64,000 bases of DNA, taken from the NCBI GenBank assembly GCA_028699255.1, contig JAQVUX010000002.1:11711-75710 (forward strand). The letters are read 5' to 3'. Both the position numbers and the translations under genes were made by a program. Numbering within the stretch: position 1 is the first letter of the stretch; each line of letters starts with the position of its first letter. The notes below the pieces were generated by a model. That model ran no database searches. It worked only from the letters and a program-made list of their open reading frames with translations, and was not told where the DNA came from. Origin of the DNA: Candidatus Omnitrophota bacterium (GTDB lineage: Bacteria > Omnitrophota > Gorgyraeia > 2-01-FULL-45-10). Positions 1,002-44,287 of this stretch are shown piece by piece.

Positions 1002-2219
1002 ATGAAAGAACTGCTAAAAGAAAAAGCAAAAGGCCTTAAAGCAAATCTGAACAAGTTTTACAAAAGCGTTGAAAATTTTAAACTGAATAGCGCAAATATC
1101 GGCGAATTCACCGATATCGTCGCGGCAGAAATGAAGGAATCGTCCTTTAATAAGATTACGAAGGATAAGGCCGGTAATCTGATAGGGGTTATAGAAGGAT
1201 ACGGTAATAAGGATGCTGTCGTCATGGTGTCGCATATTGATATGAGGACGGCGAATCAGCAAAAACTGGAAGGCTTAGACGCAAACGGCATGGAAGGATT
1301 TAAGTCCGGTATTGTTTCAAGCGTTTATGCCGGCGCTTTGATAAAGAGAACTCTTTTGCCGCTGACGGGTGATTTGATTATCTGTTGTGTGCCGAGAGTA
1401 GAATGTTGTGATTTTGGCATTCAATATCTGTTTGACGATTTTTTAAAGTCCAGGATTAAGAAGATTAAAGGTGTGATTCTCTGTGAGCCTACCGGTTTTA
1501 ATATTAATCTGGGACACAAGGGCAGGATGGAATATGAGATAGTAGTTAAAGGCCGCCTGAACAGAAATTTTCTGGAAAATCGCGGTATAAACATGCTCGG
1601 TACGATGTTTCCGTTGATAAATGAGCTGGAAAAAGTTTCGAAAGAATTACCGAGTGATTTTAACTTGGGCCGTTCAGGGCTCAGGATAAAAGATGTGCGT
1701 TACAGCGGATATCAGCCGCAGGATGCGGTCAGTGAATTTCGTATAGTTGTAGATAGGGTATTTATACCGGAAGAGAGCGAAAGTTTTATTTTAAACAAAG
1801 CTAAGACTATAGCTAAGACTGTATATAAGCAGGAGCCGGATATCACGATCAATACTCTTATGGCAAAAGAGAGGGTGAAAACATATACCGGGCTTGAATC
1901 GGTATCCGAGAAAGAGTTTAAGCCGTGGTCTATGGAAAGCCATCAACCATTCGCCATGGAATCACTTAACACATTGACCGAAAACGGGTTTAAGTCCGAT
2001 TTCGGCTACTGGAAGAAGATAGTTACGGAAGGCTCGTATACTTATGGACAGCTTAAAATCCCTACTATAGGGTTTGGGGCGGGGTCGGAAGATGCTGTGT
2101 CTTCGGGGCCGAATTCATTAACTGCCGACAAGACCGAGAAGGCGGGGTGTGGCCAGGCGTTAATTGTTCTAAGAAGCATAGGTATGCCGACATTCGGATG
2201 GAGCTCGGATGAAATCTAA
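1002..2219 (+). CDS. M20/ArgE/DapE-family metallopeptidase-like protein, divergent and possibly non-catalytic
   Basis: M20-like blocks VVMVSHIDMRT (the HxD block) and ILCEPTGF (the GEP block). The canonical EE block is replaced by a Cys-rich segment, CCVPRVECCDFG. The C-terminal His region reads GPNSLTADK. GGAGG RBS. Confidence 0.55.
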   Translation: MKELLKEKAKGLKANLNKFYKSVENFKLNSANIGEFTDIVAAEMKESSFNKITKDKAGNLIGVIEGYGNKDAVVMVSHIDMRTANQQKLEGLDANGMEGFKSGIVSSVYAGALIKRTLLPLTGDLIICCVPRVECCDFGIQYLFDDFLKSRIKKIKGVILCEPTGFNINLGHKGRMEYEIVVKGRLNRNFLENRGINMLGTMFPLINELEKVSKELPSDFNLGRSGLRIKDVRYSGYQPQDAVSEFRIVVDRVFIPEESESFILNKAKTIAKTVYKQEPDITINTLMAKERVKTYTGLESVSEKEFKPWSMESHQPFAMESLNTLTENGFKSDFGYWKKIVTEGSYTYGQLKIPTIGFGAGSEDAVSSGPNSLTADKTEKAGCGQALIVLRSIGMPTFGWSSDEI

Positions 2220-3441
2220 GAAACAGGTTAATATCCTTGTGCTTAATTGCGGGAGCTCGTCCCTGAAGTATAAAATAATAAGAATGCCGGATGGGGCCGA
2301 GATCGTACGCGGGGAAGCCGAAAGAGTAGGCGCTAAAACTCGAGAGTCTTCTATTATTACGCATTTTGTTTTTGGTAAAAAAACAGTGATTGAAACGCCG
2401 CTTGCGGATCATTCCGCGGCTCTTAAAAAAGTGCTTGAGTTGATAGCCGATAACGAAAAAAAGAACAAAGATATAAGGTTTGATATTTTTGCGCACAGGT
2501 ATGTTCACCCGGGTATGTCATTTAGTAAGACCGCGAAGGTTAACAAGGTTGTTTTGAGAAAATTGAAAGAGACATTGCCGCTTGCGGCTATCCATAATCC
2601 GATAATCTACAAATTAATAGAATTTTGTCACCGTTCATACGTCGGTATAGACCAGTTTGTAGTATTCGATACCGTTTTTCATAAGACGATCCCGCCGGAA
2701 TTTTCTACCTACGCGCTTCCTTTAAAAGTTATGAAGAAATATCATATAAAAAAAATAGGTTTTCATGGCATATCCCACAAATACGTTATGGAGGAAGCGT
2801 GTAAATTTTTAGGTAAAGATAAATCTTTTCAGAAAATAATAAGCTGTCATTTAGGCTCGGGCGGCTCGAGTATTTGCGCGATTAGCAATGGAAAATCTGT
2901 TAATAATTCCATGGGATTTACTCCGCTCGAAGGCTTGATGATGAATACCCGTTGCGGGGATATCGATCCCGGGGCGGTTTTTTACATAATGTTCAAAGAA
3001 CGTTTTTCTTCGGAAGAAACCGAAAATATCCTTAATAATAAAAGCGGCATCTTGGGTGTATTCAATAGCTCATCCGATCTTAGGGATGCTATTAAGGATA
3101 TCGACAAAAGTAAACAGGCCAAAATGGCATTCAATATGTATGTACGCCGGGTAAGGACGTATGTGGCATTTTACGCCATGATCCTGAAGAAAGCGGATAT
3201 TTTGATATTCACAGATTCGCTTGGCATAGGATCTCCGGTATTGCGTAAAAGTATTTGTAAGGATATGGGGTTTTTAGGGATTAACCTTGACGAAGAAAAG
3301 AACAAAGAATACGATAAAGGCATAAGTGTTATTTCGCCTGCCGATTCCGGCACAAAAGTTCTTATAATTCCCACAGACGAAGAAAATATGATCGCAAAAG
3401 AAGCATACAAGGAGCTGATAAAAAATGATTCCGGTTATTGA
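2209..3441 (+). CDS. ackA: Acetate/propionate (acyl) kinase family protein
   Basis: ILVLNCGSSSLKYKI phosphate-1 motif, GFHGISHKY, TRCGDIDPGAV and IPTDEENMIA motifs match the ASKHA acetate-kinase catalytic signature. Confidence 0.8.
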   Translation: MKSKKQVNILVLNCGSSSLKYKIIRMPDGAEIVRGEAERVGAKTRESSIITHFVFGKKTVIETPLADHSAALKKVLELIADNEKKNKDIRFDIFAHRYVHPGMSFSKTAKVNKVVLRKLKETLPLAAIHNPIIYKLIEFCHRSYVGIDQFVVFDTVFHKTIPPEFSTYALPLKVMKKYHIKKIGFHGISHKYVMEEACKFLGKDKSFQKIISCHLGSGGSSICAISNGKSVNNSMGFTPLEGLMMNTRCGDIDPGAVFYIMFKERFSSEETENILNNKSGILGVFNSSSDLRDAIKDIDKSKQAKMAFNMYVRRVRTYVAFYAMILKKADILIFTDSLGIGSPVLRKSICKDMGFLGINLDEEKNKEYDKGISVISPADSGTKVLIIPTDEENMIAKEAYKELIKNDSGY

Positions 3442-4489
3442 CTATAACCTGAAAGATTTACGGATCTGGACGCCATCTCTTTTTATCAAAAACATTGAAG
3501 AAATGCAAGACGATGATGCCCTCAGAAAATGCATACTCTCCATTGCCGGTAAAAATAAAGTAAGGGCGATTGCTTTCAGGATACTCTTCGGAGGCGATTA
3601 TTTCAACAAACCCCAGATTATCAATTCGAATTTTTTCCCCCAGTTCGGAAAATTGACAATTTTCTTCCCATTTTATATTCCGTCGACGCTGGACATGTTG
3701 CAGAGATTTCGCGGCGCGTTCAGGGATATCCCATTAATAGTTTTCTTCGAGACTTCATTTTTTCTGAATTTACCGGATGAGGAAAAATATTACGCCCTGC
3801 CATTCGAATACAACAAAAACAGCAAGATAAAGAAATTTGGATTTCACGGGATATTCCACGAAGCGAATGCCGGCATGGTGCCCTCGGGGAGCAGGACGAT
3901 TTCTCTGGTATTTGATAAGCAGACAACCGTATGCGCCATTTATAACAAGCGGCCGCTTTCCATAAGCCTGGGTTATACTCCTCTCGAAGGCATAATGTCA
4001 GGCAGGGCTTGCGGGGATCTGGATCCCGGGATAGTTTTTTATCTTATGAATGTTCATAATTTCTCGATCTACGAGATCGATGAAATGCTAAAGAACAAAA
4101 GCGGTTTTAAAGGCCTTACAGGCTATGATATTGAGTTAAAAGATATGATCAAAATGCGCGGGAAGGATGCCAAAATTGATCTGGCATTCAACGTATATGA
4201 ATCTCAGATAATGAAATATATCGGAGAGGGCGTAGCGGCCATGGGCGGGGTGGATAATATTATTATTGCGGGAAGTAATATAAATATAGTTACCCCTATA
4301 ATCTATACGCTTATAAAAAAGATATCGTTTTTAGGTATCAATATCATACGATTGCCGTGGGATAAGGATAAGGAGATAAGTAATATTACGTCTGAAGAGT
4401 CAAAGATAAAAGTTTATATTAACAGGAAAAGCCTGCCCGCTATAATATTGCGTGAGAGCGAAGTTTTTATGCGAAATAAAAATTATTGA
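3425..4489 (+). CDS. Acetate-kinase-like paralogue lacking the N-terminal ATP motif and the C-terminal catalytic Glu region (putative pseudo-kinase)
   Basis: Retains FGFHGIFHEAN and GRACGDLDPGIVFY blocks. Has no NCGSSS-type N-terminus and no TDE block. AGGAG RBS. Overlaps the upstream kinase stop. Confidence 0.65.
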   Translation: MIPVIDYNLKDLRIWTPSLFIKNIEEMQDDDALRKCILSIAGKNKVRAIAFRILFGGDYFNKPQIINSNFFPQFGKLTIFFPFYIPSTLDMLQRFRGAFRDIPLIVFFETSFFLNLPDEEKYYALPFEYNKNSKIKKFGFHGIFHEANAGMVPSGSRTISLVFDKQTTVCAIYNKRPLSISLGYTPLEGIMSGRACGDLDPGIVFYLMNVHNFSIYEIDEMLKNKSGFKGLTGYDIELKDMIKMRGKDAKIDLAFNVYESQIMKYIGEGVAAMGGVDNIIIAGSNINIVTPIIYTLIKKISFLGINIIRLPWDKDKEISNITSEESKIKVYINRKSLPAIILRESEVFMRNKNY

Positions 4490-4632
4490 CAATCCTTCAA
4501 AGACGTTATAGACTAAACAAAGTAGTTAGATATTTTTTAATATGGGCGATGAGGTCCTCTTTGCAAACATAGTTGTTTGAAGGAGGATTTTTTATTTCAG
4601 CCTATAATAAAAAATGTGACTGAAGGTATCAA

Positions 4633-5862
4633 ATGGCAAATATAAAAGATAAAAGATCTAATATTACTCTTTCTCAGGAAATTAAGATCCTGAGAAGAAT
4701 CGTTGAGATCACGAATTCCGAGCTTGACCTAAAATTAATTCTTGGAGAGATCGTTAATGTTGTTAACGATATAACCAAAGCGGATTCTGTTTTTATCTAT
4801 CTATTTGATGAGAAAAAGCGGCATCTGGTTCTTATCGCTTCAAAAACTCCGCATAAAAAAGAGATAGGTAGCGTGAATCTTAAAATAGGAGAAGGCATTG
4901 CGGGCTGGGTCGCTCGCGAGAATAAGCCTGTCGCCATACAAAAAAATGCTTATCAGGATTCACGGTTTAAAAATTTTGACGCACTGCCGGAGGATAAATA
5001 TGAGGCGCTTCTTTCTGTTCCTATCATTTATAAAGGAAGGCCTACGGGAGTTATTAATGTCCAACATAAAAAGCCGCACGAATATGCCGTAAATACTGTT
5101 AGCTTAATCTCGATCATAGCTAAACAGGTAGGCGGTGTTATTGAAAATGCCAGATTACATGAAGAGGATAAGAGAAAGGCCCTGCAATTCGACAGCTTAA
5201 CCAAGGTAAGCAGGTCTATTACTTCACAAGGGTATTTAGGCGAGATCTTGAACCTTATCGTTGTTGTTACGGCTAAAATGCTTAATTCTAAAATCTGTTC
5301 TATCATGCTTCTTGATCAAAAAGGTGATGAGCTGGCTATTAAAGCTACCCAGAGCTTGAGCGAAGAGTATAAAAAGAAGCCAAATATAAAAGTGAATACC
5401 AGTATAAGTGGAGAGACTATAACAACCAAAAAACCCATTGTAATCTATGATGTCCGGAGTGAGAAAAAATACCATTTTAGGGATTTAGCGGTTAAAGAAA
5501 ATCTTACATCGATGCTGTCGGTACCTATGGTCGTAAGAGATAAAGCGATAGGCATTATTAATGTTTATACAATAGAGCGACACTTATTCACGCAAGAGGA
5601 AATCGATATATTGCAAATGGTGGCGAATCAGGCGGCTGTGGCGGTTGAAAATACAAAACTGATGGAAGATGCGTTAAAAGCCAAAGAAGCGTTGGAAGTG
5701 CGAAAGATGGTGGAGCGGGCAAAAGGTATACTGATGAGACAGTCGAAGATAAGCGAAGATGAGGCATACAGGATAATCCATCGTAAGAGTATGGATACAT
5801 GCAAGCCGATGCGTGAGATTGCCGAGGCGATTATTTTGGCTTGGGATATGAAAAAGCAGTAG
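4633..5862 (+). CDS. GAF-GAF-ANTAR RNA-binding antitermination-type regulator
   Basis: Two GAF-like segments (IGEGIAGWVAREN..., VPMVVRDKAIGIINVY). C-terminal ANTAR signature: EVRKMVERAKGILMRQSKISEDEAYRIIHRKSMDTCKPMREIAEAII. Confidence 0.8.
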   Translation: MANIKDKRSNITLSQEIKILRRIVEITNSELDLKLILGEIVNVVNDITKADSVFIYLFDEKKRHLVLIASKTPHKKEIGSVNLKIGEGIAGWVARENKPVAIQKNAYQDSRFKNFDALPEDKYEALLSVPIIYKGRPTGVINVQHKKPHEYAVNTVSLISIIAKQVGGVIENARLHEEDKRKALQFDSLTKVSRSITSQGYLGEILNLIVVVTAKMLNSKICSIMLLDQKGDELAIKATQSLSEEYKKKPNIKVNTSISGETITTKKPIVIYDVRSEKKYHFRDLAVKENLTSMLSVPMVVRDKAIGIINVYTIERHLFTQEEIDILQMVANQAAVAVENTKLMEDALKAKEALEVRKMVERAKGILMRQSKISEDEAYRIIHRKSMDTCKPMREIAEAIILAWDMKKQ

Positions 5863-5977
5863 AGGTAAAAATAAATTTAAAAGGAGGTTACCAAAAAGGT
5901 CCATTTTTTACTTGTAGCAGTGTAGTTTAAGATATTATGGCGCATTGATGCGTTGGTAGCAATATAGGTGGGGCACA

Positions 5978-6011
5978 GACGTTCCTAAAAAAGGAACGTC
6001 TTTTTTATTTT
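5978..6011 (+). terminator. Rho-independent terminator after the ANTAR regulator gene
   Basis: GACGTTCC-taaaaaa-GGAACGTC 8-bp stem followed by TTTTTTATTTT. Confidence 0.7.
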
Positions 6012-6020
6012 CGTAGTTTT

Positions 6021-6059
6021 GAGCACAAAGAAGTGCTCAGTAGAGGGCATGGTCGCCCT
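6021..6059 (+). promoter_or_regulatory. Candidate ANTAR RNA target: two tandem hairpins with hexaloops (A at position 1, G at position 4)
   Basis: Hairpin 1 is GAGCAC-AAAGAA-GTGCUC (6021-6038). Hairpin 2 is AGGGC-AUGGUC-GCCCU (6044-6059). They are separated by a 5-nt linker. A weak hairpin (ACGGGgcgcCUCGU) with a UUUUA tract follows at ~6089-6109, just before the RBS of the 6126 gene. Confidence 0.4.
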
Positions 6060-6125
6060 GTTTGCCGCCGCGGTGGCAAAAGACGGGGCGCCTCGTTTTA
6101 TCGGATATGACAAAAAGGAGCGTAT

Positions 6126-7439
6126 ATGAATAGATTAAAAAGTTTTGCAATTATCAGCTTGTTGATGGCCGGTATGATTGCCGGCTCTGTCTGTGTGTAT
6201 GCCGACGAGACGGGCAGTATAAAGGAAATAGTATCAGCAGAATCGTCCTCATCTGTGTCTACGCCGGAGGTCGTGTCTGCGCCGGACCAGGGACTCCTGA
6301 TGACTATCCTGGATAAGGTAGGGTTAGGGAAGTACTTAAATCAGACGGGCATTAAAATCTATGGTTACGCCGAAGCCGGATATATGTACGATACGACGGC
6401 TCCGCAACCTTACGCCGGGCCGACATATTTGGCTTTTGACAGTTTAAGAAATACGCCGGTTGTAAATAAGATATCATTAAAAGCGGAAAGAACAGTTGAC
6501 GCCGCTAAAAAACAATTTGACATAGGGTTTTGTTTGCAAGGTATATGGGGCTATGATGCGAAATTTATTCATTCGGCAGGTCTTGGCGATACCCAGACAG
6601 GCCGGTATCAGCTTGACCCGCTTCAGGCTTATGTGGATGTAGCGCTTCCTTATATTCCCGTGAAAATTCGCGTAGGAAAATGGTTAGAGCTCGGAGGATT
6701 TGAACAGTTTGATGCTAATCTCTATGGGGCGTTTGGCGATCCGATGCGGGCCTTCTACTCTTATAGTTATCAGTGTTTTTACGCGGAGCCTGGCACTCAA
6801 ACAGGCCTTCTCGGCACATATGTAGTAAACCCTCATCTGACCTTAGATTTAGGATTTTCAGAAGGCTGGAACCACTCTTCGCGTAATCCTAACGGTTATC
6901 TGGATATAATAGGAAGAATTACCTACGCGCCAACGGATAAGACGACAATAATATTTGCGATGACAGAAGGCCCGGAATATCCTGTCGCAGTAGGGCGAGG
7001 ATTGCCTGATGCGGATACTAAGGACTGGTGGACCTCCATGGATCTCGTGATAACTCACAAGCTTACCGATAAGATTAGCTTAGGTACAGGCGTGGATTTT
7101 GTAAACGCTCCGCGTATACCGGGATTAGAAAACGGTTCCAAGCAATGGGGGGGTATAACCGGATATTTGAGTTATGCAATCAATCAATATGCAACAGCGA
7201 ATGGGCGTTTAGAATGGTTTAATGACTCGTCATACGGATTTGCCACCGGCGCCGGAATAGGCGCAAATTATTATGAGACTACCTTGGGAGCCGCTATAAA
7301 ACCGTTCCCTAAAGATAAGATTCTGTCGAATATGTTATTCAGGCCGGAAGTAAGAATAGACTGGGCCGATGAGGCGGTTTTCGCCAAAGGCGATAGAAGC
7401 CAGGTAACATTAGCAGGAGACGTTCTATTCACTTTCTAG
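6126..7439 (+). CDS. Putative outer-membrane beta-barrel/porin, first gene of the amt-glnK-glnA operon
   Basis: Signal peptide (MNRLKSFAIISLLMAGMIAGSVCVYA). Abundant alternating aromatic/Gly beta-strand pattern. C-terminal ...LFTF aromatic terminus typical of OMPs. Confidence 0.6.
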   Translation: MNRLKSFAIISLLMAGMIAGSVCVYADETGSIKEIVSAESSSSVSTPEVVSAPDQGLLMTILDKVGLGKYLNQTGIKIYGYAEAGYMYDTTAPQPYAGPTYLAFDSLRNTPVVNKISLKAERTVDAAKKQFDIGFCLQGIWGYDAKFIHSAGLGDTQTGRYQLDPLQAYVDVALPYIPVKIRVGKWLELGGFEQFDANLYGAFGDPMRAFYSYSYQCFYAEPGTQTGLLGTYVVNPHLTLDLGFSEGWNHSSRNPNGYLDIIGRITYAPTDKTTIIFAMTEGPEYPVAVGRGLPDADTKDWWTSMDLVITHKLTDKISLGTGVDFVNAPRIPGLENGSKQWGGITGYLSYAINQYATANGRLEWFNDSSYGFATGAGIGANYYETTLGAAIKPFPKDKILSNMLFRPEVRIDWADEAVFAKGDRSQVTLAGDVLFTF

Positions 7440-7475
7440 AATAGAAAATTCTAAGTATGGGAAAGGAGTTTGTGT

Positions 7476-8807
7476 ATGGATACAAAAGTTGTTCTTGATA
7501 CGCTGTGGGTTTTAGTTACGGGAATGCTCGTGTTTTTTATGAATCTTGGATTTGCGATGGTGGAGGCGGGTTTTGCCAGGGTGAAGAATTGCGTGAATAT
7601 CTTATCAAAGAACTTTATAGTCTTCGCCATAGCCTCGATCGGATTCCTTGCCGTAGGGTATGGGCTTATGTTTGGCGATGGTAACCCGTTTATAGGTCTG
7701 AAGGGACTGTTTTTCTTAGGAGGATTGGACAATTCGCCAGCAACAGGCGAGGCTTATAAAGGAGTATATACCGCGTTAGCTTGGACAGGGGTTCCGTTAT
7801 TGGCAAAATTCTTTTTCCAACTTGTTTTTGCCGGAACGGCCGCTACGATAGTATCCGGCGCCGTAGCTGAAAGAATAAAGTACATTTCCTTTATAGTGTT
7901 TTCGTTTATTCTGGTTATGCTTATATACCCGATAGTAGGACATTGGATATGGGGCGGCGGATTTTTGGCAACAATGGGAATGTTCGATTTTGCCGGTTCT
8001 ACAGTAGTTCACTCAGTTGGCGGATGGGCCGCTTTAGCAGGAGTCCTGGTCTTAGGCCCCAGATTTGGAAAATATACGGATAGTGGCAAGATAAATCCGA
8101 TACCAGGGCACAATATACCTATAGCAACTATCGGAACGTTTGTGTTGTGGCTTGGCTGGTTCGGCTTTAATCCCGGCTCCACTATGGCCGCCGACCCTGT
8201 TGCAATAGCCCACATATGCATTACTACTAATACGGCGGCCGCGGCGGCAATATTGAGCGCGACGCTCTTGTCGTGGATATTATCAGGTAAACCGGATCTT
8301 GGTATGACACTTAATGGTTGCCTGGCAGGACTTGTGGCGATAACAGCCTCATGCGCTTTTGTAAGTATCGGAAGTTCCGTGATAATAGGCCTGATAGCCG
8401 GTGTTTTAGTAGTCCTTGCGGTTATGGGTTTTGACAGAATTAAATTAGACGATCCCGTGGGCGCTTTATCGGTCCACCTGGTAAACGGTGTTTTCGGTAC
8501 CATATGCGTAGGATTGTTCGCGCAGGATAAGCTTACAGGTACGGCCACAGGGAACGGGTTGTTCTTTGGCGGCGGAACCAAACTGCTTATGGCGCAATTG
8601 GCAGGCGTCCTGGCATGCGGAGCGTTTGTTTTCATAGCGTCTTTTATCACTTGGAAGCTTATAAAAGTTACGATCGGCCTTAGGGTGAGTTTGCAAGAAG
8701 AGATAGATGGGCTGGATATAGGTGAACATGGTAATTCCGCTTATCCGGAATTTTTGACCCGAAAACCGGCATATTCATTTTCGGGCTTGAATGAAGATAA
8801 GTCCTAA
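7476..8807 (+). CDS. amt: Ammonium transporter (Amt/MEP family)
   Basis: Multi-TM protein with Amt blocks (FFQLVFAGTAATIVSGAVAERIKY, HSVGGWAALAGVLVLGPR, HLVNGVFGT). Start set to ATG 7476, which lies 7 nt after an AAAGGAG RBS. The annotated 7470 is TTG. Confidence 0.9.
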   Translation: MDTKVVLDTLWVLVTGMLVFFMNLGFAMVEAGFARVKNCVNILSKNFIVFAIASIGFLAVGYGLMFGDGNPFIGLKGLFFLGGLDNSPATGEAYKGVYTALAWTGVPLLAKFFFQLVFAGTAATIVSGAVAERIKYISFIVFSFILVMLIYPIVGHWIWGGGFLATMGMFDFAGSTVVHSVGGWAALAGVLVLGPRFGKYTDSGKINPIPGHNIPIATIGTFVLWLGWFGFNPGSTMAADPVAIAHICITTNTAAAAAILSATLLSWILSGKPDLGMTLNGCLAGLVAITASCAFVSIGSSVIIGLIAGVLVVLAVMGFDRIKLDDPVGALSVHLVNGVFGTICVGLFAQDKLTGTATGNGLFFGGGTKLLMAQLAGVLACGAFVFIASFITWKLIKVTIGLRVSLQEEIDGLDIGEHGNSAYPEFLTRKPAYSFSGLNEDKS

Positions 8808-8829: not shown

Positions 8830-9168
8830 ATGAAAAAAATAGAAGCTGTTATACGACCCGAGAAACTCGATGCAGTCCGACAAGCCCTGGAAAAGGTCGA
8901 TTGTGGCGGACTCATGATCAGTGAGATCGAAGGACATGGCAAACAGAAGGGCGTTGTACAGCAGTGGCGTGGAGAAAAATACAGGATGGAGCTGCTTCCA
9001 AAAATGAAAGTCGACGTAGTAGTGAATGATAAAGATGTAGATTCAATAATTAAAACTATAATAAAAGCCGCGAAAACCGGAGAAGTGGGTGACGGGAAGA
9101 TATTTATTTCGGATATACAGGATGCCGTACGTATCCGAACGGGAGAAAAAGGCGAAACGGCTGTTTAA
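8830..9168 (+). CDS. glnK: Nitrogen regulatory protein P-II
   Basis: 112 aa. MKKIEAVIRPEKLD...RGEKYRMELLPKMK is the T-loop with the conserved Tyr. Located directly downstream of amt, as in canonical amtB-glnK pairs. Confidence 0.9.
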   Translation: MKKIEAVIRPEKLDAVRQALEKVDCGGLMISEIEGHGKQKGVVQQWRGEKYRMELLPKMKVDVVVNDKDVDSIIKTIIKAAKTGEVGDGKIFISDIQDAVRIRTGEKGETAV

Positions 9169-9226
9169 AGGATAAATAAGGGTGTCCGCCGGTGGGGATA
9201 ACATCGGCGGACACAACATAATTTAT

Positions 9227-10621
9227 ATGGTCAATGCAATATTATATTACGTAATCGGCATTATCGCGACTGTGTGGGCATCGTCTTTTTTGGGGCTTAC
9301 CGCAAAGCAGTTGATGGCAATAGGCGGGTTCTCTTCTATATTTTTCGGAGCTATTTTTTTCTGGCGCCATCGTCTTGTGTTCGCATTCTTCGGAGTGGGC
9401 ATGCTTTTAACATTGGGCCTACTGGACGTACCACACGTGATCGAATTTGCCGGCATCGACATTGTCCTGTTCCTGATATCAATGATGATAATCATAGGAT
9501 TTCTCGAAGAGAAGCAATTTTTTGAACACCTTGTTAATAAATTGATAGCGCTTGTAGGGACTAATGGCCATCTCCTTTTTATCCTTTTGATGGTAGCATC
9601 CTTCGCTTCAGCCGCTCTTGTAGATGAGATAACCTCTATATTATTTATGAGTGCCGCAATGCTCAATCTTACTTCGCGGTTTAAACTAAACCCTATTCCA
9701 TTCATCATTATGATAGTTTTCGCGACAAATGTTGGTTCGAGCGCGACCGTAATAGGCAATCCCGTAGGGGTAATAATCGCACTAAGGAGCGGACTCGGTT
9801 TTATGGAATTCCTGCGGTGGGCGGCGCCTATATCACTCGTGGTTCTGGTTGTTACCATCGGGCTTTTCTATATATATTATGCCAGACCCATTCGACAGTT
9901 CAATGAAGCTTTTAAAGCTCACAAGAAAGAAATGGCAGGCAAGGCCGTACTTCTGGAAGGCGCTCATCTTTATAAGAAAGCCTTTATCCCGGGCATCCTT
10001 TTTGCGTGCGTGATACTTGGGCTTGTCTTTCATGCCGGGATAGAGCATTTTTTTGCTCTGGAAAAGAATACGATGCTTCTCGGAAGCGCGATACTGGGCG
10101 CATGCGCCGCACTCGCACTTCATAAAAACGAGGCGCGGGGCCTGGTAGAAAAACGCATCGACTGGTGGACGCTCGCCTTCTTTTTATTTCTGTTCGCATC
10201 TGTAGGTACATTAAAATATCAGGGCATAACCGGTGTATTGGCCCATAGAATAATGGAAGTTGCAGGAAATAATGTCCCCGCTTTGGTAAGTATATTTATA
10301 TGGGCATCGGGTGCGCTTACTTCCGTTATAGATAATGTGCTGGCCGTGTCGACCTTCGTTCCTATAGTTAAGGATATAGGGACTGCCGGAGTGCATTCGC
10401 CTTCGCTGTGGTGGGCGATACTGTTTGGCTCTACAATACTCGGTAATTTAACCATAATAGGCAGTACCGCCAATATGGTGGCTGTAGGCGTTATGGAACG
10501 GCGTAAGCTTGGCCAGATAAGTTTTTTAGAATGGTTAAAGGCGGGGGTCGTTGTGGCGATCCCATCTCTTATCGTTGCGCACCTACTGATCCTTGCGCAA
10601 TTGAAGTGGATGGTTAAATAA
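9227..10621 (+). CDS. ArsB/NhaD (CitMHS) superfamily anion permease
   Basis: About 12 TM segments with an internal repeat. Central soluble loop. Blocks such as NVGSSATVIGNPVGVII and TIIGSTANMV. Start placed at ATG 9227 because 9182-9212 forms a 9-bp hairpin (TGTCCGCCG...CGGCGGACA). Confidence 0.6.
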   Translation: MVNAILYYVIGIIATVWASSFLGLTAKQLMAIGGFSSIFFGAIFFWRHRLVFAFFGVGMLLTLGLLDVPHVIEFAGIDIVLFLISMMIIIGFLEEKQFFEHLVNKLIALVGTNGHLLFILLMVASFASAALVDEITSILFMSAAMLNLTSRFKLNPIPFIIMIVFATNVGSSATVIGNPVGVIIALRSGLGFMEFLRWAAPISLVVLVVTIGLFYIYYARPIRQFNEAFKAHKKEMAGKAVLLEGAHLYKKAFIPGILFACVILGLVFHAGIEHFFALEKNTMLLGSAILGACAALALHKNEARGLVEKRIDWWTLAFFLFLFASVGTLKYQGITGVLAHRIMEVAGNNVPALVSIFIWASGALTSVIDNVLAVSTFVPIVKDIGTAGVHSPSLWWAILFGSTILGNLTIIGSTANMVAVGVMERRKLGQISFLEWLKAGVVVAIPSLIVAHLLILAQLKWMVK

Positions 10622-10636
10622 AAGGAGGAAGTGGTT

Positions 10637-12142
10637 ATGAATAAGAAAAAAACATTAAAAAAAGAGGTCAAGTTGGCAAACCCGCTTATAAACGGCTCAT
10701 TTAATGAAAAGGCCGCAAGGGGTGTGTTGAAATTAATCAAAGAGAAGAACATCCAGATAATCGATCTGAAATTTAACGACCTGCCTGGCCTGTGGCAGCA
10801 TTTTTCCATACCCGCGAGGGAAATGCTGAATATGGAGGATATTACGAGATCTATCTGGGTCGACGGCATCGGTTTCGACGGTTCTTCGATACGAGGTTTT
10901 CAGAAGATACAGGAATCGGACATGATACTGATACCGGATCCGGATACTGCTGTGGTCGATCCGGTATGTGAAGTGCCGACTTTAAGTATCATATGCGATA
11001 TTTATGATCCGTTAACGAGAAAAGCTTATACGCGCGATCCCCGGTATATAGCTAAGAAAGCGGAAAAATATCTAAACACAACAGGCATAGCCGATACGAT
11101 TTATTTTGGCCCCGAAGCCGAGTTCTTCATCTTTAATGATATCCGTTTCGACCAGACGGAGAATTCCGGATACTACTTTATAGATTCTCAAGAAGCCGAT
11201 TGGAACACCGGAAGGATAGAAAATCCGAATCTTGGATATAAGATTCGTTTTAAGGAAGGTTATTTTCCTGTACCGCCGAATGATTCTATCCAGGATTTAA
11301 GAAGCAGAATGATCCTCAAGATGATAGAGTCGGGTATAAATGTGGAAGTGCACCATCATGAAGTTGCGACAGCCGGGCAGTGCGAAATAGATATGAGATT
11401 TGATAAACTGACAAAAATGGGCGACAGCCTCCTGCTGTATAAGTATATAGTAAAGAATATGGCGAAAAAAGCCGGGATGGTGGCAACCTTTATGCCGAAG
11501 CCGCTTTTTGCGGATAACGGATCCGGCATGCACTGCCATCAAAGCTTGTGGAAAGACGGAGTAAATCTGTTTTACGATAAAAAAGGTTATGCGTTATTAA
11601 GCCAGACGGCAAAGTATTATATAGGAGGGTTGCTTAAGCACGCAAACTCACTTATGGCTTTTTGCGCGCCGACGACCAATTCATACAAGCGCTTAGTCCC
11701 GGGCTATGAAGCTCCGGTAAATCTGGTCTATTCAGCAAGAAACCGGTCGGCCGCGGTTAGAATACCTATGTATTCCGATAGTCCTAAATCAAAGAGAATA
11801 GAATTCCGCCCACCCGATCCTGCCTGTAACGGATATCTGGCATTCAGCGCGATGTTGATGGCAGGTCTCGACGGTATCCAAAATAAGATAGATCCGGGGA
11901 ACCCGACAGATACGGACCTGTTTGACTTAAATGAAGAAGAGCTTTCGAGAATCCCAACGGTGCCGTCATCCCTGAGGCGCGCGGTCGATGCGCTTGAGGC
12001 GGATCATGAATATCTGTTAAAAGGCGGCGTGTTTACAAAAGACGTTATCGACGTGTGGCTTGAATACAAGAGAAAGAAAGAGATAGATCCGGTCAGGATG
12101 AGACCGCATCCGTATGAGTTCTATTTATATTTCGATATATAG
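10637..12142 (+). CDS. glnA: Glutamine synthetase type I
   Basis: [20 protein letters not shown] and [14 protein letters not shown] are GSI signature blocks. ATG 10637 lies 7 nt after an AAAGGAGGA RBS. Confidence 0.9.
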
Positions 12143-12156
12143 GAGTATGAGTAATT

Positions 12157-12870
12157 ATGTCAGGACGGATATTGATCATAAAGCATGTTGAAATCGAAGG
12201 TGCGGGCACCATTGAGCGTTTTTTTCAAAATACTGATTGGTCGCTTGCGACACTCGATTTTACCGCCGGAGGCTTTCCTCCGGACGATCTTAATGATATC
12301 AAAGCGATAATATCTATGGGCGGCCCTATGAATGTTTATGAAGAAGCCGATTATCCTTTTTTGAGGGACGAGGATCTGTTCTTGAAAAAAGCCATCAAGA
12401 AAGAGATCCCGATTCTGGGGATATGCTTAGGTGCTCAATTACTGGCGAAGGCCTGCGGCGCGGAAGTAAGGAAGGCTCCGGAGAAAGAAATGGGTTGGCA
12501 TAGGATAGAATTAACGGCTGATGGAGAAAAGGATCCGTTTTTTGCCGGATTATCCAAGGAACTCGAAGTATTTCAATGGCATGAAGATGCATTTGATATT
12601 CCGAAAAGCGCGGTGTGCCTGGCTAATTCTAAATCCTGTCATAATCAGGCGTTTAGATTTGGTAAAAATGCTTATGGCTTACAATTTCACATAGAAGTTA
12701 CGCCGGCCATAATAGGATCATGGGTAAAAGAATATATAAAAGATGAAAAAGAACGTCTTGTCGCCAAGGATATGCTGATAGACGCATATGAAAAAAGAGA
12801 GGCGTTTGAAAAACAGGCTAACATGGTATATTTAAATTTCGCAAAGATCATGGCGGGTTTTACTAAATAG
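12157..12870 (+). CDS. Class-I glutamine amidotransferase-like protein
   Basis: GATase1 nucleophile elbow ILGICLGAQLL, plus HED/HIE region (QFHIEV). Confidence 0.7.
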   Translation: MSGRILIIKHVEIEGAGTIERFFQNTDWSLATLDFTAGGFPPDDLNDIKAIISMGGPMNVYEEADYPFLRDEDLFLKKAIKKEIPILGICLGAQLLAKACGAEVRKAPEKEMGWHRIELTADGEKDPFFAGLSKELEVFQWHEDAFDIPKSAVCLANSKSCHNQAFRFGKNAYGLQFHIEVTPAIIGSWVKEYIKDEKERLVAKDMLIDAYEKREAFEKQANMVYLNFAKIMAGFTK

Positions 12871-12897: not shown

Positions 12898-12932
12898 GAA
12901 ATGTCCGCCCTCCCCTACGAGGCGGACATTTC
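12898..12932 (+). terminator. 12-bp perfect stem-loop after the GATase gene (no U-tract)
   Basis: GAAATGTCCGCC-tcccctacga-GGCGGACATTTC. Confidence 0.35.
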
Positions 12933-13008
12933 GTATCAATTTAGCTAATCGCCACAGAGCTCCCCGCCACCGTTAGAGTGAGGAATGGGTTCAATAGTTA
13001 TAATTTGC

Positions 13009-13036
13009 TTGTTTATCGCCGCAAAGCCATTATAAT
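13009..13036 (+). promoter_or_regulatory. Possible sigma70 promoter TTGTTT-16-TATAAT ahead of the malic-enzyme gene
   Basis: Hexamers read by eye in the 13000-13040 intergenic region. Weak -35. Confidence 0.3.
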
Positions 13037-13061
13037 ATATTTTATACCAAGGAGAGAAGAA

Positions 13062-14435
13062 ATGGCGGAAATAGAAAAGCATTCACATAAGATCGCAAAA
13101 AAGATAAGGTTCAGGATACCGGATGTCCCCGGAGCGCTTGGCGCCCTCGCGCTTGGACTTGGCACGGAAGAGGTTACTTTAGGCGACATAGCCCGGGTGC
13201 ATCTTACCTCTAATTATGTAGTGAGGGATATTACCGCGTTTTTTGATGACGAGGAACATTTTCTTAAAGCAATGACTGCCGTCAAAAAACTCAAAGGTTA
13301 TAAGATGCTGGGTGTGCAGAATGAGGTTTTAAATTTACACAAAGGCGGAAAGATAGAGATAAAGCCCCGCGTGAAGTTCGAGACCCTAAATGATCTGCGC
13401 ATGATATATACTCCCGGCGTTGCGCAGGTATGTAATTATATAGTTGCGCATCCTGACGAGGCGAAAAAATATACATCCATAGGCAATACCGTATGTATCG
13501 CGACGAATGGCTCGGCAGTACTGGGGCTTGGGGATATCGGTGTTCTGGCCGCGATGCCTGTAATGGAAGGCAAGTCGATCATACTTAATAAGATGGGTGG
13601 CGTGAGCTGTATCCCGCTGTTATTGGAAAGCGCCGATGCAGATGTAATAGTTAATACGCTCTCCTGTGTCGCGGAAACATTCGGCGCTATCATGATAGAG
13701 GATGTTAAGGCGCCTCTTTGTTTTGAGATAGAGCAAAGGTTGCAGAAGAAAGTCAGGATACCGGTATTCCATGACGATCAGCATGGCACCGCCACCGTTA
13801 TATTGGCCTCATTGATCAAGGCGCTTAGAATCACCAAGAAGAGGAAAGAGAAAGTAAATATCGTGATAAACGGCGCTGGCGCGGCCGGCATTGCCACGGC
13901 GAAGCTTCTTTTGGAATATGGTTTTAAGAACATAGTGCTGTGCGACAGGGCCGGAGCTATATATAAAGGCAGAACGAACGACATGAACGGATTTAAAAAA
14001 GAGATTGCCCTCATCACTAACAAGCGCAGGGAAAAAGGCGCTCTGAAGGATGTATTTAAAGGTAAAGATGTTTTTATAGGCCTATCGGCACCCGGGCTCG
14101 TTACAAAAGAAATGGTAAAAACCATGAATAAACGGCCGGTCATTTTCGCAATGGCTAATCCTGTGCCGGAAATATGGCCGAAAGACGCCGAAGAAGCGGG
14201 GGCCGCTATCGCGATGGATGGCCGGACGGTAAACAATGCGCTTGTGTTCCCTGGAATCATGCGCGGTACGCTCGACTCGCGTGCTCGCGAAGTAACCAGT
14301 TGCATGAAATTTGCCGCCGCCGAAACGGTCGCGTCATTAGCCGGCAAAAATGAAGTTGTTCCGAATTTCATGAATACCGCCGTGCATAAAAGCGTGGCAA
14401 AAGCCGTATTCTTCGCCGCGTCGCGGGGAAAATAA
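13062..14435 (+). CDS. NAD(P)-dependent malic enzyme with N-terminal ACT-like domain
   Basis: IYTPGVAQVC, PVFHDDQHGTA and NGAGAAGIA Rossmann blocks match malic enzyme. Start placed at ATG 13062, after an AAGGAGAG RBS. Confidence 0.85.
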   Translation: MAEIEKHSHKIAKKIRFRIPDVPGALGALALGLGTEEVTLGDIARVHLTSNYVVRDITAFFDDEEHFLKAMTAVKKLKGYKMLGVQNEVLNLHKGGKIEIKPRVKFETLNDLRMIYTPGVAQVCNYIVAHPDEAKKYTSIGNTVCIATNGSAVLGLGDIGVLAAMPVMEGKSIILNKMGGVSCIPLLLESADADVIVNTLSCVAETFGAIMIEDVKAPLCFEIEQRLQKKVRIPVFHDDQHGTATVILASLIKALRITKKRKEKVNIVINGAGAAGIATAKLLLEYGFKNIVLCDRAGAIYKGRTNDMNGFKKEIALITNKRREKGALKDVFKGKDVFIGLSAPGLVTKEMVKTMNKRPVIFAMANPVPEIWPKDAEEAGAAIAMDGRTVNNALVFPGIMRGTLDSRAREVTSCMKFAAAETVASLAGKNEVVPNFMNTAVHKSVAKAVFFAASRGK

Positions 14436-14491
14436 ATATTGACAAGCGGGCGTAAAAGGTTTAAATTATACGAAAAGATAAGTATGAGACA

Positions 14492-14531
14492 AAGACGTCC
14501 ATATAGTATTTGTGGACGTCTTTTTTATTTT
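14492..14531 (+). terminator. Rho-independent terminator
   Basis: AAGACGTCCA-tatagtatttg-TGGACGTCTT followed by TTTTTTATTTTT. Confidence 0.7.
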
Positions 14532-14567
14532 TGAATGCCTAAAAAATGTGCAATCGGGAAATATCAT

Positions 14568-15398
14568 ATGAAGATACTCGAGAAGGAAGTTTTGGTAGAT
14601 AGCCAGGGGGTGAGAATAGTGAAGATCACTATTCGGTCTCCGGATATCGCGGCGAAAGCAAAGGCAGGACAATTTGTCGTTCTGATGGTGAAGGAAGAGG
14701 GCGAGAGAATACCTCTGACTGTCGTGAAAGCAGATGCGGCAAAGGGTACCATCGTGCTTATCGCTCAGGAGGCAGGGCTTACTACGAAGCTATTAGGTAA
14801 GGCTGTCCCGGGAGATTCGCTCTATTCCCTTGTAGGCCCATTAGGCCATCCGACAGAAATAAAGAAATACGGTAAAGTTATTCTTGTAGGCGGCGGCGTT
14901 GGGATAGCGGAGATACTGCCTGTTGCCAGAGCTATGAAGAACGCAGGTAATCACGTGACCGTTATTATCGGTTCGCGCGCCAAAGAGCTTTTGATACTCG
15001 AGCGCGACCTGAAAGAATCTTCGGACGAGTTTATTGTCATGACCGACGATGGTTCATATGGCCGTAAGGGATTTGTTACCGAAGCGCTCAAAGAACTTCT
15101 CGAAAAATCAAAATACGATCTCGTTTACGCGGTAGGCCCGATACCCATGATGAGAGCGGTTTCCATGGTGACGAAAGCTTCGGGCGTTCTTACTCTGGTA
15201 TCGCTCAATGCGGTAATGGTCGACGGTACCGGGATGTGCGGTTGTTGCAGGGTCACTGTCGGCAAAGAGGTGAAGTTCAGCTGTGTCGACGGCCCGGAGT
15301 TTGACGCAAGCCAGGTCGATTGGCAGGAACTTTTAAGCCGTAATAATATTTATTCCGAAAAAGAAAAACATATCTGTCGTCTTCATGGGGCGGGTTAA
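14568..15398 (+). CDS. FAD/NAD(P)-binding oxidoreductase with C-terminal Cys cluster (NfnA/SudB/PyrK-like small partner of the GltD-type subunit)
   Basis: Ferredoxin-reductase-type FAD and NAD domains (GQFVVLMV, LVGGGVGIAEIL) and a CGCCRV...C cluster. Start uncertain: 14535 and 14568 are both possible, and the RBS is weak for both. Confidence 0.75.
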   Translation: MKILEKEVLVDSQGVRIVKITIRSPDIAAKAKAGQFVVLMVKEEGERIPLTVVKADAAKGTIVLIAQEAGLTTKLLGKAVPGDSLYSLVGPLGHPTEIKKYGKVILVGGGVGIAEILPVARAMKNAGNHVTVIIGSRAKELLILERDLKESSDEFIVMTDDGSYGRKGFVTEALKELLEKSKYDLVYAVGPIPMMRAVSMVTKASGVLTLVSLNAVMVDGTGMCGCCRVTVGKEVKFSCVDGPEFDASQVDWQELLSRNNIYSEKEKHICRLHGAG

Positions 15399-15403
15399 TT
15401 CAT

Positions 15404-18182
<2,779 letters not shown>

Positions 18183-43330: not shown

Positions 43331-43407
43331 GCGCCCGTAGCTCAACTGGATAGAGTGAGTGGCTTCGAACCACTAGGTCGCAGGTTCGACTCCTGCCGGG
43401 CGCGCCA
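43331..43407 (+). tRNA. tRNA-Arg (anticodon TCG), CCA encoded
   Basis: Cloverleaf folded by hand. Acceptor GCGCCCG/CGGGCGC, D-stem GCTC/GAGT, anticodon stem AGTGG/CCACT with loop CTTCGAA, T-arm GCAGG-TTCGACT-CCTGC. Confidence 0.85.
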
Positions 43408-43528
43408 GTTTTCGCCACTGTAAGACTATGGCGAAAACGCCCCGAAGCATATATGAAAATTATCAAAGATAATTTTCATATGTTTACGCAAGGGGCGGAA
43501 TATAAAATTTTACAAAAGAATTTTTCTA

Positions 43529-43613
43529 GCGGACGTGGTGGAACTGGCAGACACGTACGGCTTAGGACCGTATGCCGCAAGGCTTGAGAGTTCAACTCTC
43601 TCCGTCCGCACCA
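43529..43613 (+). tRNA. tRNA-Leu (anticodon TAG), class II with long variable arm, CCA encoded
   Basis: Acceptor GCGGACG/CGTCCGC, anticodon stem TACGG/CCGTA with loop CTTAGGA, variable arm GCCGCAAGGC, T-arm GAGAG-TTCAACT-CTCTC. Confidence 0.85.
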
Positions 43614-43889
43614 CAAGCCCCGATTTTCCTAAGGAGTCTTTCAAAAAATCCTCGGGAAATTGGATGGCAAAATTTTCAGGTACTTTAGTGTAAATTCATC
43701 TTTACACGTTTAACAAAATTAAGTATAATGAGCCTTTATTCGTAGAAATTTTAAAGAAGATTTTCTGAGCGTATTTTTCGTATTTTGATATATTTGTCCT
43801 ATAGCTCTCCTTCAAATTTTAAATTTTCGGAGAAAATTTAAAATTTATTGATTCGCTATAGGACTGGAAATTTCAAGAGAAATTTCCAA

Positions 43890-43964
43890 GCGGCGGTAAT
43901 TCAGTGGTAGAATGCGACCTTGCCAAGGTCGATGTCGTGGGTTCGAACCCCATCCGCCGCTCCA
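43890..43964 (+). tRNA. tRNA-Gly (anticodon GCC), CCA encoded
   Basis: Acceptor GCGGCGG/CCGCCGC, D-arm ATTC-AGTGGTA-GAAT, anticodon stem CGACC/GGTCG with loop TTGCCAA, T-arm GTGGG-TTCGAAC-CCCAT. Confidence 0.85.
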
Positions 43965-43970
43965 TATTCT

Positions 43971-44106
43971 GAAAACTTTTCGAAGAAAGTTTTCAGGTCC
44001 TGGAGTTTCAGATACTTCGATTTTGCTCCGCAAAATCGAAGGAGTGAGCAAAACTTTTCGAAGAAAGTTTTCAGGTCCTGGAGTTTCAGATACTTCGATT
44101 TTGCTC
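43971..44106 (+). repeat. Two tandem copies of a 78-nt structured repeat, upstream of tRNA-Lys
   Basis: Unit: GAAAACTTTTCGAAGAAAGTTTTCAGGTCCTGGAGTTTCAGATACTTCGATTTTGCTCCGCAAAATCGAAGGAGTGAGC. It contains hairpin A (GAAAACTTT/AAAGTTTTC) and hairpin B (CGATTTTG/CAAAATCG). Confidence 0.8.
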
Positions 44107-44211
44107 TGAAAAATCCTGGCCCGCATAGCTCATCCTCCTGCGCTACGACAGTAAGATTGGATGAAGCTTCGGCGAGATTTCGCCGACAGGGCTAAAGAGT
44201 AAGATTATAGC

Positions 44212-44287
44212 GCCCGCATAGCTCAATTGGCAGAGCAGGACACTCTTAATGTCAAGGTTCCAAGTTCGATTCTTGGTGCGGGCACCA
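44212..44287 (+). tRNA. tRNA-Lys (anticodon CTT), CCA encoded
   Basis: Acceptor GCCCGCA/TGCGGGC, D-arm GCTC-AATTGGCA-GAGC, anticodon loop CTCTTAA, T-arm CCAAG-TTCGATT-CTTGG. The 27-43 pair is a G-A mismatch. Confidence 0.8.

Follow-up and report, generated by a model that had tools for sequence, protein, structure and literature searches.

Serial hexaloop/terminator leaders and a GAF-GAF-ANTAR protein: a predicted antitermination system for nitrogen-assimilation genes in Omnitrophota

Introduction

Antitermination by ANTAR-domain proteins is well understood where the RNA-binding domain is coupled to REC, pseudo-REC or NIT input domains. A candidate GAF-coupled case is supplied by a 64,000-nt stretch of DNA from Candidatus Omnitrophota (GenBank assembly GCA_028699255.1, contig JAQVUX010000002.1, positions 11,711-75,710, forward strand), here called the window, in which the gene for a GAF-GAF-ANTAR protein is flanked by RNA modules that each combine a hairpin bearing a six-nucleotide loop (hexaloop) with an overlapping intrinsic terminator. 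Judged from sequence and from comparison with relatives, it is probable that a nitrogen-assimilation regulon is controlled here by transcription attenuation, with the GAF-GAF-ANTAR protein antiterminating serial hexaloop/terminator leaders. By analogy, the system appears to work like antitermination by EutV, NasR, AmiR, NasT and GnfR, showing each ANTAR hallmark that sequence analysis could address, and the type of regulon is not new; what is new is an uncharacterised one-component GAF-ANTAR sensor, a tandem and autoregulatory layout, and phylum-wide conservation.

The EutV/EutW system, known from the eutP, eutG, eutS and eutA leaders of Enterococcus faecalis, shares with this locus the ANTAR output, hexaloop hairpins with A at loop position 1 and G at position 4 (A1 and G4), the residues that contact G4, a second hairpin that excludes an intrinsic terminator, and the presence of several regulated terminators per locus. 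It differs in having a phosphorylated REC input and an ethanolamine signal, whereas the Omnitrophota system has two GAF domains, no kinase and a nitrogen-assimilation regulon. Many of the modules described here also carry the second hexaloop at the terminator tip instead of upstream, and their stem is a fixed GGGC/GUCC with a conserved G.U pair.

The NasR/nasF leader system of Klebsiella oxytoca offers a parallel in the A1/G4 requirement and in gene order, a one-component sensor-ANTAR gene lying directly upstream of its nitrogen operon, but it uses a NIT domain for nitrate and nitrite, a single leader and a sigma-54/NtrC-driven promoter, and has no autoregulatory leader. GnfK/GnfR of Geobacter sulfurreducens likewise employs an ANTAR regulator under nitrogen limitation, and the terminator-containing leaders proposed to be under GnfR antitermination include those of glnK and amtB (Ueki and Lovley, PMC2995071); in contrast to the present system, it is a two-component REC-ANTAR pair under a sigma-54 master system, experiments addressed nifH only, and the motif was not defined as GGGC-hexaloop-GUCC. 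ANTAR RNAs have further been predicted in several phyla upstream of genes for P-II, ammonium transporters, and glutamine and glutamate synthases, in multi-unit arrangements exemplified by the 13 ANTAR RNA matches in six units of Desulfotomaculum acetoxidans (Ramesh et al., 2012, PMC3369931). Those regulons belong to other phyla and leave Omnitrophota uncovered, and GAF-ANTAR proteins are stated there to be uncharacterised. A first-pass annotation of the window, made without database searches, had taken ANTAR control of amtB-glnK-glnA to be undescribed, which is wrong in view of PMC3369931 and PMC2995071.

Elsewhere the GAF-ANTAR class is listed only as an architecture (PMC7496416, PMC12591593). 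The literature searched yielded no characterised GAF-ANTAR protein, nothing on Omnitrophota nitrogen regulation or on a combination of PtsP-like and NifA-like GAF domains, and no description of an autoregulatory leader, of a fixed GGGC/GUCC stem with a G.U pair, or of a partner hexaloop placed at the terminator tip. With this locus, a GAF-ANTAR protein acquires predicted RNA targets, a coherent set of regulated genes, and glutamine and/or 2-oxoglutarate as hypothetical ligands that can be tested; the locus also affords a first view of possible nitrogen regulation across an uncultivated phylum, exerted after initiation by serial terminators and positive autoregulation.

Leader modules around the regulator gene

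Three terminator/hexaloop modules lie in series in the window, M0 before the regulator gene and M1 and M2 between the regulator gene and the porin gene that opens the adjacent operon. Ranks in the following list refer to R1, a covariance model built from 123 hairpins of relatives, with the window and its 97% twin (locus L126) left out, and run against the window with filters off and on both strands (128 kb searched).

4544-4557, + strand: M0 antiterminator hairpin GGGC-GAUGAG-GUCC, the best R1 match of the whole window
4555-4597, + strand: M0 terminator T0, stem 4555-4587 (UCCUCUUU.../...AAGGAGGA) and U-run 4588-4597
5938-5955, + strand: M1 hairpin P1', UGGCGC-AUUGAU-GCGUUG, from folding and relatives
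5970-5985, + strand: M1 hairpin P2', GGGGC-ACAGAC-GUUCC, the second-best R1 match, overlapping T1
5977-6011, + strand: M1 terminator T1, 10-bp stem 5977-6001 plus TTTTTTATTTT, with the T-run reaching 6011
6021-6038, + strand: M2 hairpin P1, GAGCAC-AAAGAA-GUGCUC, the third-best R1 match, -10.9 kcal/mol
6044-6059, + strand: M2 hairpin P2, AGGGC-AUGGUC-GCCCU, from pattern and folding, below R1 reporting
6051-6101, + strand: M2 terminator-like hairpin T2, hairpin 6051-6092 followed by UCG-UUUUAU, from minimum free energy (MFE) and centroid folds

The hairpin and terminator folds are mutually exclusive because the 3' arm of the hairpin is the start of the terminator 5' arm. In M0 this arm is reused in the lower stem of T0, the tip of which forms a second hexaloop hairpin (CAAAC-AUAGUU-GUUUG, 4564-4579); T0 folds at -15.7 to -19.6 kcal/mol, and the enforced antiterminator fold is 11.6 kcal/mol less stable. 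The 5' arm of T1 (-14.9 kcal/mol) begins within the P2' loop, and the terminator fold is preferred by 7.8 kcal/mol. T2, at -28.4 kcal/mol, appears in the MFE and centroid folds of both 6012-6125 and 6040-6112; its 5' arm is supplied by P2 (loop plus 3' arm), in the manner classic for ANTAR targets, and forcing P2 costs 4.7 kcal/mol. Overlap of a terminator with a hexaloop hairpin extends to a fourth candidate module, M3 (14488-14533), so that it holds from M0 to M3, with the terminator state preferred by 4.7-11.6 kcal/mol. The six hexaloops around the regulator gene (GAUGAG, AUAGUU, AUUGAU, ACAGAC, AAAGAA and AUGGUC) all have G4, and five have A1, the M0 hairpin having G in that position. Paired hexaloop hairpins are separated by linkers of 6 nt in M0, 14 nt in M1 and 5 nt in M2, and the ribosome-binding site at ~6113-6119 falls outside all structures. 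A permissive terminator scan of the whole window gave many false positives in coding regions and served only to confirm M0, M1 and M3, each of which it returned as a compact terminator with an overlapping hexaloop.

Parts of this arrangement had been recognised in the first-pass annotation. The two hairpins that it placed at 6021-6038 and 6044-6059 exist, each with A1 and G4. The terminator that it saw after the regulator gene is there as well, not as a plain terminator, however, but as the ANTAR-type module M1 with P1' and P2', and the hairpins begin 10 nt beyond its T-run, or 20 nt beyond its stem, where the annotation had 35 nt. What had been called a weak stem before a U-tract is the strong T2, although the U-tract is indeed present, if modest. 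Finally, the single switch that was proposed corresponds to the M2 pair, while M0 and candidate M3 were overlooked.

Conservation of the modules in Omnitrophota relatives

Seven dual hairpins with A..G.. hexaloops occur in the window, where shuffled sequence yields 2.8 +/- 1.7, and significance rests on comparative data because such a pair alone is not rare in one sequence. The comparative set consisted of 80 Omnitrophota loci, fetched using an alignment of 20 members of the regulator family. The core pattern, G[GA][GA]C-N6-G[UC][UC]C, is reverse-complement symmetric and therefore gives 227 matches on each strand. A terminator that takes up the 3' arm of the hairpin into its own 5' arm follows the core match in 134 cases on the sense strand and in 18 on the antisense strand, and when an RNNGNN loop is also demanded the counts are 128 and 1. 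Of the 134 terminator-coupled hairpins on the sense strand, 130 open the loop with a purine (A in 103, G in 27), 131 have G at position 4 and 107 have A at position 5; no such loop bias is seen in hairpins that lack a coupled terminator. The resulting consensus is GGGC-ANNGAN-GUCC, or GGGC-RNNGAN-GUCC in its wider form. So regular a combination of hairpin and terminator could serve for regulon mapping in any genome of the phylum, and the module is compact enough for reuse in synthetic biology.

A partner hexaloop hairpin lies upstream in 27% of modules (p 2e-11) and at the terminator tip in 45% (p 3e-25), compared with 8-10% at random positions in either case; by strict criteria, a partner is present in 81 of 128 modules. 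At least one module occurs somewhere in 59 of the 80 loci, and in 45 it lies no more than 700 nt after the regulator stop codon (median 130 nt). Tandem arrays of two or three modules are found in 20 of 71 leaders. The third stem pair is a G.U wobble (GGGC/GUCC) in 74 of 122 core hairpins (alignment A4, columns 10 and 19) and an A.C mismatch (GGAC/GCCC) in seven terminator-coupled modules; the antiterminator stem looks as if it were purposely maintained at a lower strength than the terminator.

The M0 hairpin is kept upstream of the regulator in loci L126, L081, L082, L083, L001-L003, L046 and L056, and all three modules are retained in order in L126 (97% regulator identity) and L082 (84%), where changes in the stems preserve pairing. 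P1' of M1 is the same in the window and L126 and reads CUGACGC-GUUGAC-GUGUCAG in L082, with counterparts of the UUACCGC-AUAGAA-GUGGUAA type in L081, L001 and L003; the stems thus differ among relatives, and the purine at position 1, G4 and A5 of the hexaloop are constant. In M2, the P1 loop is AAAGAA in the window, L126 and L082 alike, and the P2 loop, AUGGUC in the window, ACGGUC in L126 and AUAGGC in L082, varies at positions 2, 3 and 5 with A1 and G4 fixed. T2 pairing survives the substitutions in L082. Conservation of the M2 pair in comparative genomes, as looked for by the first-pass annotation, is therefore borne out.

Three matches of R1 lead its ranking of the window, namely 4537-4566 (M0; 25.5 bits, E 0.001), 5964-5993 (M1-P2'; 14.9 bits) and 6016-6045 (M2-P1; 13.9 bits), and the fourth match scores 10.1 bits. 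In 47 loci outside the training set, R1 found 40 matches at E<=1, with none on the antisense strand, although some of these contigs may derive from the same populations as the metagenome-assembled genomes (MAGs) used for training; nearly all of these matches lie 50-450 nt after the regulator stop codon or ~100 nt before its start. The covariance-model search that had been suggested as a check turned out differently for the two kinds of model: R1 places M0, M1-P2' and M2-P1 at the top, and Rfam at E<=10 returns nothing relevant over 5800-6200, a result that says little, the presence of an ANTAR-target model in Rfam not having been confirmed.

The regulator protein

The regulator open reading frame (ORF; 4633-5862, + strand) encodes 409 amino acids and, as the first-pass annotation had proposed, has a GAF-GAF-ANTAR organisation in Pfam, that of a one-component protein. 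The C-terminal ANTAR domain (PF03861, residues 350-401) scores 72.9 bits against a cutoff of 27.3, and the best Protein Data Bank (PDB) matches of the C-terminus are EutV (6wsh), Rv1626 (1s8n) and NasR (4akk). In EutV, R142, K149, E160 and Y164 hydrogen-bond to or stack on the flipped G4, and Met172 acts as an essential plug (PMC8934654). EutV R142, K143, E146, K149, E160, Y164 and M172 align with R357, K358, E361, K364, E375, Y379 and M387 of the regulator, where all seven are kept; across 20 family members, R357, K358, K364, E375 and M387 are invariant and E361 is nearly so.

GAF1 (residues ~10-177) is closest to the GAF domain of PtsP/EI-Ntr (PDB 3ci6, E 3.8e-23; PRK11061, 7.6e-37 over 19-177), and GAF2 (~184-371) to that of NifA (TIGR01817, 2.3e-26 over 184-371). 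The PRK11061 and TIGR01817 scores are far under the full-length equivalog cutoffs, as is expected when only a domain is similar. PtsP and NifA have outputs of their own, a phosphotransferase and a sigma-54 AAA+ activator, respectively, neither of which binds RNA. Glutamine is a ligand of the PtsP GAF domain (PMC4848567) and 2-oxoglutarate of that of NifA (PMC12998190), and the NifA GAF domain interacts with PII in some species (PMC3854208). Because GAF1 resembles a glutamine-binding domain and GAF2 a 2-oxoglutarate-binding one, we infer that the regulator may read nitrogen status directly through its GAF domains.

No second ANTAR ORF was found within the 64-kb window. Relatives of the regulator come nearly exclusively from Candidatus Omnitrophota MAGs, and in five of the loci (L012, L013, L020, L024 and L043) the regulator gene is directly followed by a second GAF-containing paralog, 24-35% identical to the regulator.

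Gene content of the regulon

The operon downstream of M2, which the first-pass annotation described as encoding a porin, Amt, P-II, a permease and glutamine synthetase (GS), is confirmed by Pfam, with a class-I glutamine amidotransferase (GATase) in addition. Its genes are all on the + strand, with intergenic gaps of 9-30 nt between 6126 and 12870.

6126-7439, + strand: BBP2 outer-membrane porin (Pfam)
7470-8807, + strand: Amt ammonium transporter (Pfam)
8830-9168, + strand: P-II (Pfam)
9182-10621, + strand: CitMHS-type permease (Pfam)
10631-12142, + strand: GS type I (Pfam)
12157-12870, + strand: class-I GATase (Pfam)

The operon may extend through a malic-enzyme-like gene (12978-14435), and the first strong terminator on its 3' side is at 14491. 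A GUCCGCC...GGCGGAC hairpin follows the GATase gene at 12901-12930 without a proper U-tract; the operon could end here or past the malic-enzyme-like gene.

In relatives, amt-glnK lies directly 3' of the regulator in about half of the 80 loci. When the first ORF that follows a module, or a cluster of modules, was scanned against Pfam (n=64), Amt accounted for 34 and GS for 12, 11 of the latter being type III. Pyridine nucleotide-disulphide oxidoreductase families were found in three, one of them also with nitrite/sulphite reductase domains, and the others included two BBP2 porins, one P-II and one PtsP-like protein. The module-linked genes form a coherent nitrogen-assimilation regulon. Members of the closest clade have, as the first gene behind the M1-type module, one for a 170-aa sigma factor of the extracytoplasmic function (ECF) type (TIGR02937; L001:5328-5837, L127:3643-4155, L128:3328-3840, and also in L081 and L083), followed by P-II, porin and Amt genes, which suggests a cascade from antiterminator to sigma factor in that clade, absent from the window.

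Transcript architecture

One promoter-like site precedes M0 and the regulator gene.

4486-4514, + strand: TTGACA-17-TAGACT, from a consensus scan with 10/12 matches, present also in L126

From its position, the transcription unit would start at ~4521. In L081, L127, L001 and L002, the first hairpin begins 3-10 nt past the regulator stop codon, so there is no intergenic room for a promoter and, it can be argued, RNA polymerase arrives at the downstream genes by reading on from the regulator gene; a promoter inside the regulator coding sequence is possible. The window lineage has an extra conserved 70-nt noncoding block before M1 (5863-5935), ~85% identical in L082, which contains tandem TGTAG repeats and AAAGGAGGTTACC and shows no conserved fold. 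This block could harbour an internal promoter or serve as the binding site of a protein. Two other promoter candidates were rejected. A sigma-54 promoter read as TGGCGC-N-TGC at 5938-5952 has a GG-GC spacing of N9, not N10, and loses its GG in L082, and the 9 nt that separate T1 from P1 leave no space for a sigma-70 promoter.

Proposed mechanism and alternative explanations

By default, the leaders of M0, M1 and M2, and probably of M3, would fold into intrinsic terminators. The GAF-GAF-ANTAR protein, encoded between M0 and M1, would bind the leader hexaloops, with its conserved Tyr/Arg/Lys/Glu/Met set contacting a flipped-out G4 and the second hexaloop hairpin presumably being the upstream one in M1 and M2 and the one at the terminator tip in M0. 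The bound small hairpin would stay closed, the terminator could not form, and RNA polymerase would read on. One transcript from ~4521 would carry M0, the regulator gene, M1, M2 and the operon, and thus three checkpoints in series, of which M0, placed before the regulator gene, would confer positive autoregulation and M1 and M2 would gate porin-amt-glnK-permease-glnA-GATase. The signal would be nitrogen status, in the form of low glutamine and/or high 2-oxoglutarate sensed by GAF domains of the PtsP and NifA kinds, perhaps with modulation by PII, itself a product of the operon, and the operon would be induced under nitrogen limitation. The minimal ANTAR site has been described as a single hexaloop, with one hairpin serving for recruitment and one for antitermination (Walshe et al., PMC8934654), and this model fits upstream-partner and tip-partner layouts as well as modules that lack a partner. 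Antitermination of the adjacent operon by the ANTAR regulator, as the first-pass annotation proposed, is the most likely reading of these data, with hairpins that are conserved in relatives.

Several points weigh against this mechanism, besides those that concern M2 and the 70-nt block and are taken up with the alternatives below. The case for Omnitrophota is wholly computational, and the direction of the signal is read from regulon content only. By the criteria used, 47 of 128 modules have no second hexaloop hairpin. The core stem is conserved in sequence and shows little true covariation, double changes occurring in two of five pairs within a set that was itself selected with a pairing regular expression; covariation in P1 was read by eye, not counted, a MAFFT alignment of the M1 region having misplaced the P1 3' arm. 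Weight was therefore placed on strand asymmetry, loop conservation, terminator coupling and the independent locus set rather than on covariation. The R1 E-values of M1 and M2 are individually weak (0.3 and 0.5), and no Rfam family was matched, only tRNAs rising above the gathering threshold in the whole window. The EutV residues that contact the RNA backbone (R168, N173, R175 and R177, in the alpha7-alpha8 loop) differ in the regulator.

It is conceivable that the modules are real and that their binder, a REC-ANTAR or an unrelated RNA-binding protein, is encoded elsewhere, the adjacent GAF-GAF-ANTAR protein having other targets. The view is confined to 64 kb of the genome, beyond which another ANTAR protein could be encoded, and some relatives have the second GAF paralog beside the regulator. 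This explanation nonetheless strikes us as very unlikely, given that the regulator gene sits between modules in the window and within 700 nt upstream of one in 45 of 80 loci, that 59 of 80 loci contain at least one, that the hairpin obeys the ANTAR hexaloop A1/G4 rule and the G4-contact residues are conserved, and that the window has no other ANTAR ORF. That the hairpins act on translation, or are ordinary terminators or chance structures without a regulatory role, is scarcely credible. Actinobacterial (mycobacterial) ANTAR RNAs do repress translation (bioRxiv 10.1101/660928), and dual hexaloops are expected about three times per window; however, the ribosome-binding site lies clear of the structures, every module ends in a U-run terminator, and chance is excluded by the 128:1 strand asymmetry, loop conservation and the association with nitrogen genes.

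Two further alternatives leave antitermination in place and concern its extent. Only M0 and M1 might be functional, with M2 (6021-6101) a decaying duplicate or merely a structured leader. With a GCCC arm and a U5 that depart from the consensus (107 of 134 modules have A at loop position 5), P2 is absent from the R1 matches at E<=10, and T2 has a short U-tract, reading UUUUAU beyond a 3-nt spacer in the window and degraded to UUUAAU in L126, so that it may be a poor terminator. Yet P1, P2 and T2 are all kept in L082, at 84% regulator identity, with pairing and A1/G4 preserved and an identical P1 loop; P1 is itself an R1 match, T2 is very stable, and tandem modules are common in relatives, which makes decay of M2 an improbable explanation. 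Somewhat more room is left for the idea that the amt operon has its own promoter in 5863-5935, which would alter the transcript architecture by making the regulator gene and the operon separate units, with M1 and M2 still acting as ANTAR switches. Conservation of an unstructured noncoding block between the window and L082 suggests a protein-binding site. On the other side, a consensus scan of the + strand found no sigma-70-like site in the block, the lack of intergenic room in L081, L127, L001 and L002 speaks for read-through, and a TATTAT-type -10 element at 5932-5937 would place the start inside P1'; a separate promoter is accordingly possible but rather doubtful.

The antitermination mechanism can be extended to a broader proposal, in which the GAF-GAF-ANTAR protein would be the master nitrogen regulator of the phylum Omnitrophota, sensing glutamine and 2-oxoglutarate directly, and replacing DNA-binding systems such as NtrBC/sigma-54, GlnR or NtcA. 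Conditional terminators in chains of one to three or more would place amt, glnK, GS, GOGAT/GDH-type genes, an ECF sigma factor and the regulator's own gene under its control. We regard this extension as tentative, a possibility worth entertaining rather than the expected outcome.

A fourth candidate module

Downstream of the malic-enzyme-like gene, and directly 5' of genes for SudB-like and GltD-like proteins and glutamate dehydrogenase (GDH; 14535-18182 for the three), lies M3.

14439-14467, + strand: M3 promoter TTGACA-17-TAAATT, conserved in relatives
14488-14499, + strand: M3 hexaloop hairpin GAC-AAAGAC-GUC, with a 3-bp stem, overlapping the terminator
14491-14523, + strand: M3 terminator, strong, with U-run 14524-14533 and overlapping the hexaloop hairpin

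Relatives of this operon were obtained by protein search, and the SudB/GltD/GDH genes were not found in the regulator loci by tblastn. Among Omnitrophota relatives, L130 and L131 keep the M3 promoter and the GCGACAAAGACGUCCAUAU...GGGAUGUCUUUUUUU leader, and L132 has a variant. M3 was not detected by R1 because its stem is short; on its layout, it is probably a fourth ANTAR-type switch.

Other features of the window

The window has a G+C content of ~46%. Upstream of the regulator are two overlapping tandem genes of the acetate-kinase family (2209-3441 and 3425-4489), a pair also present in L126; the second matches profile positions 79-381 only. Four tRNA genes are clustered at 43331-44284 (+ strand).

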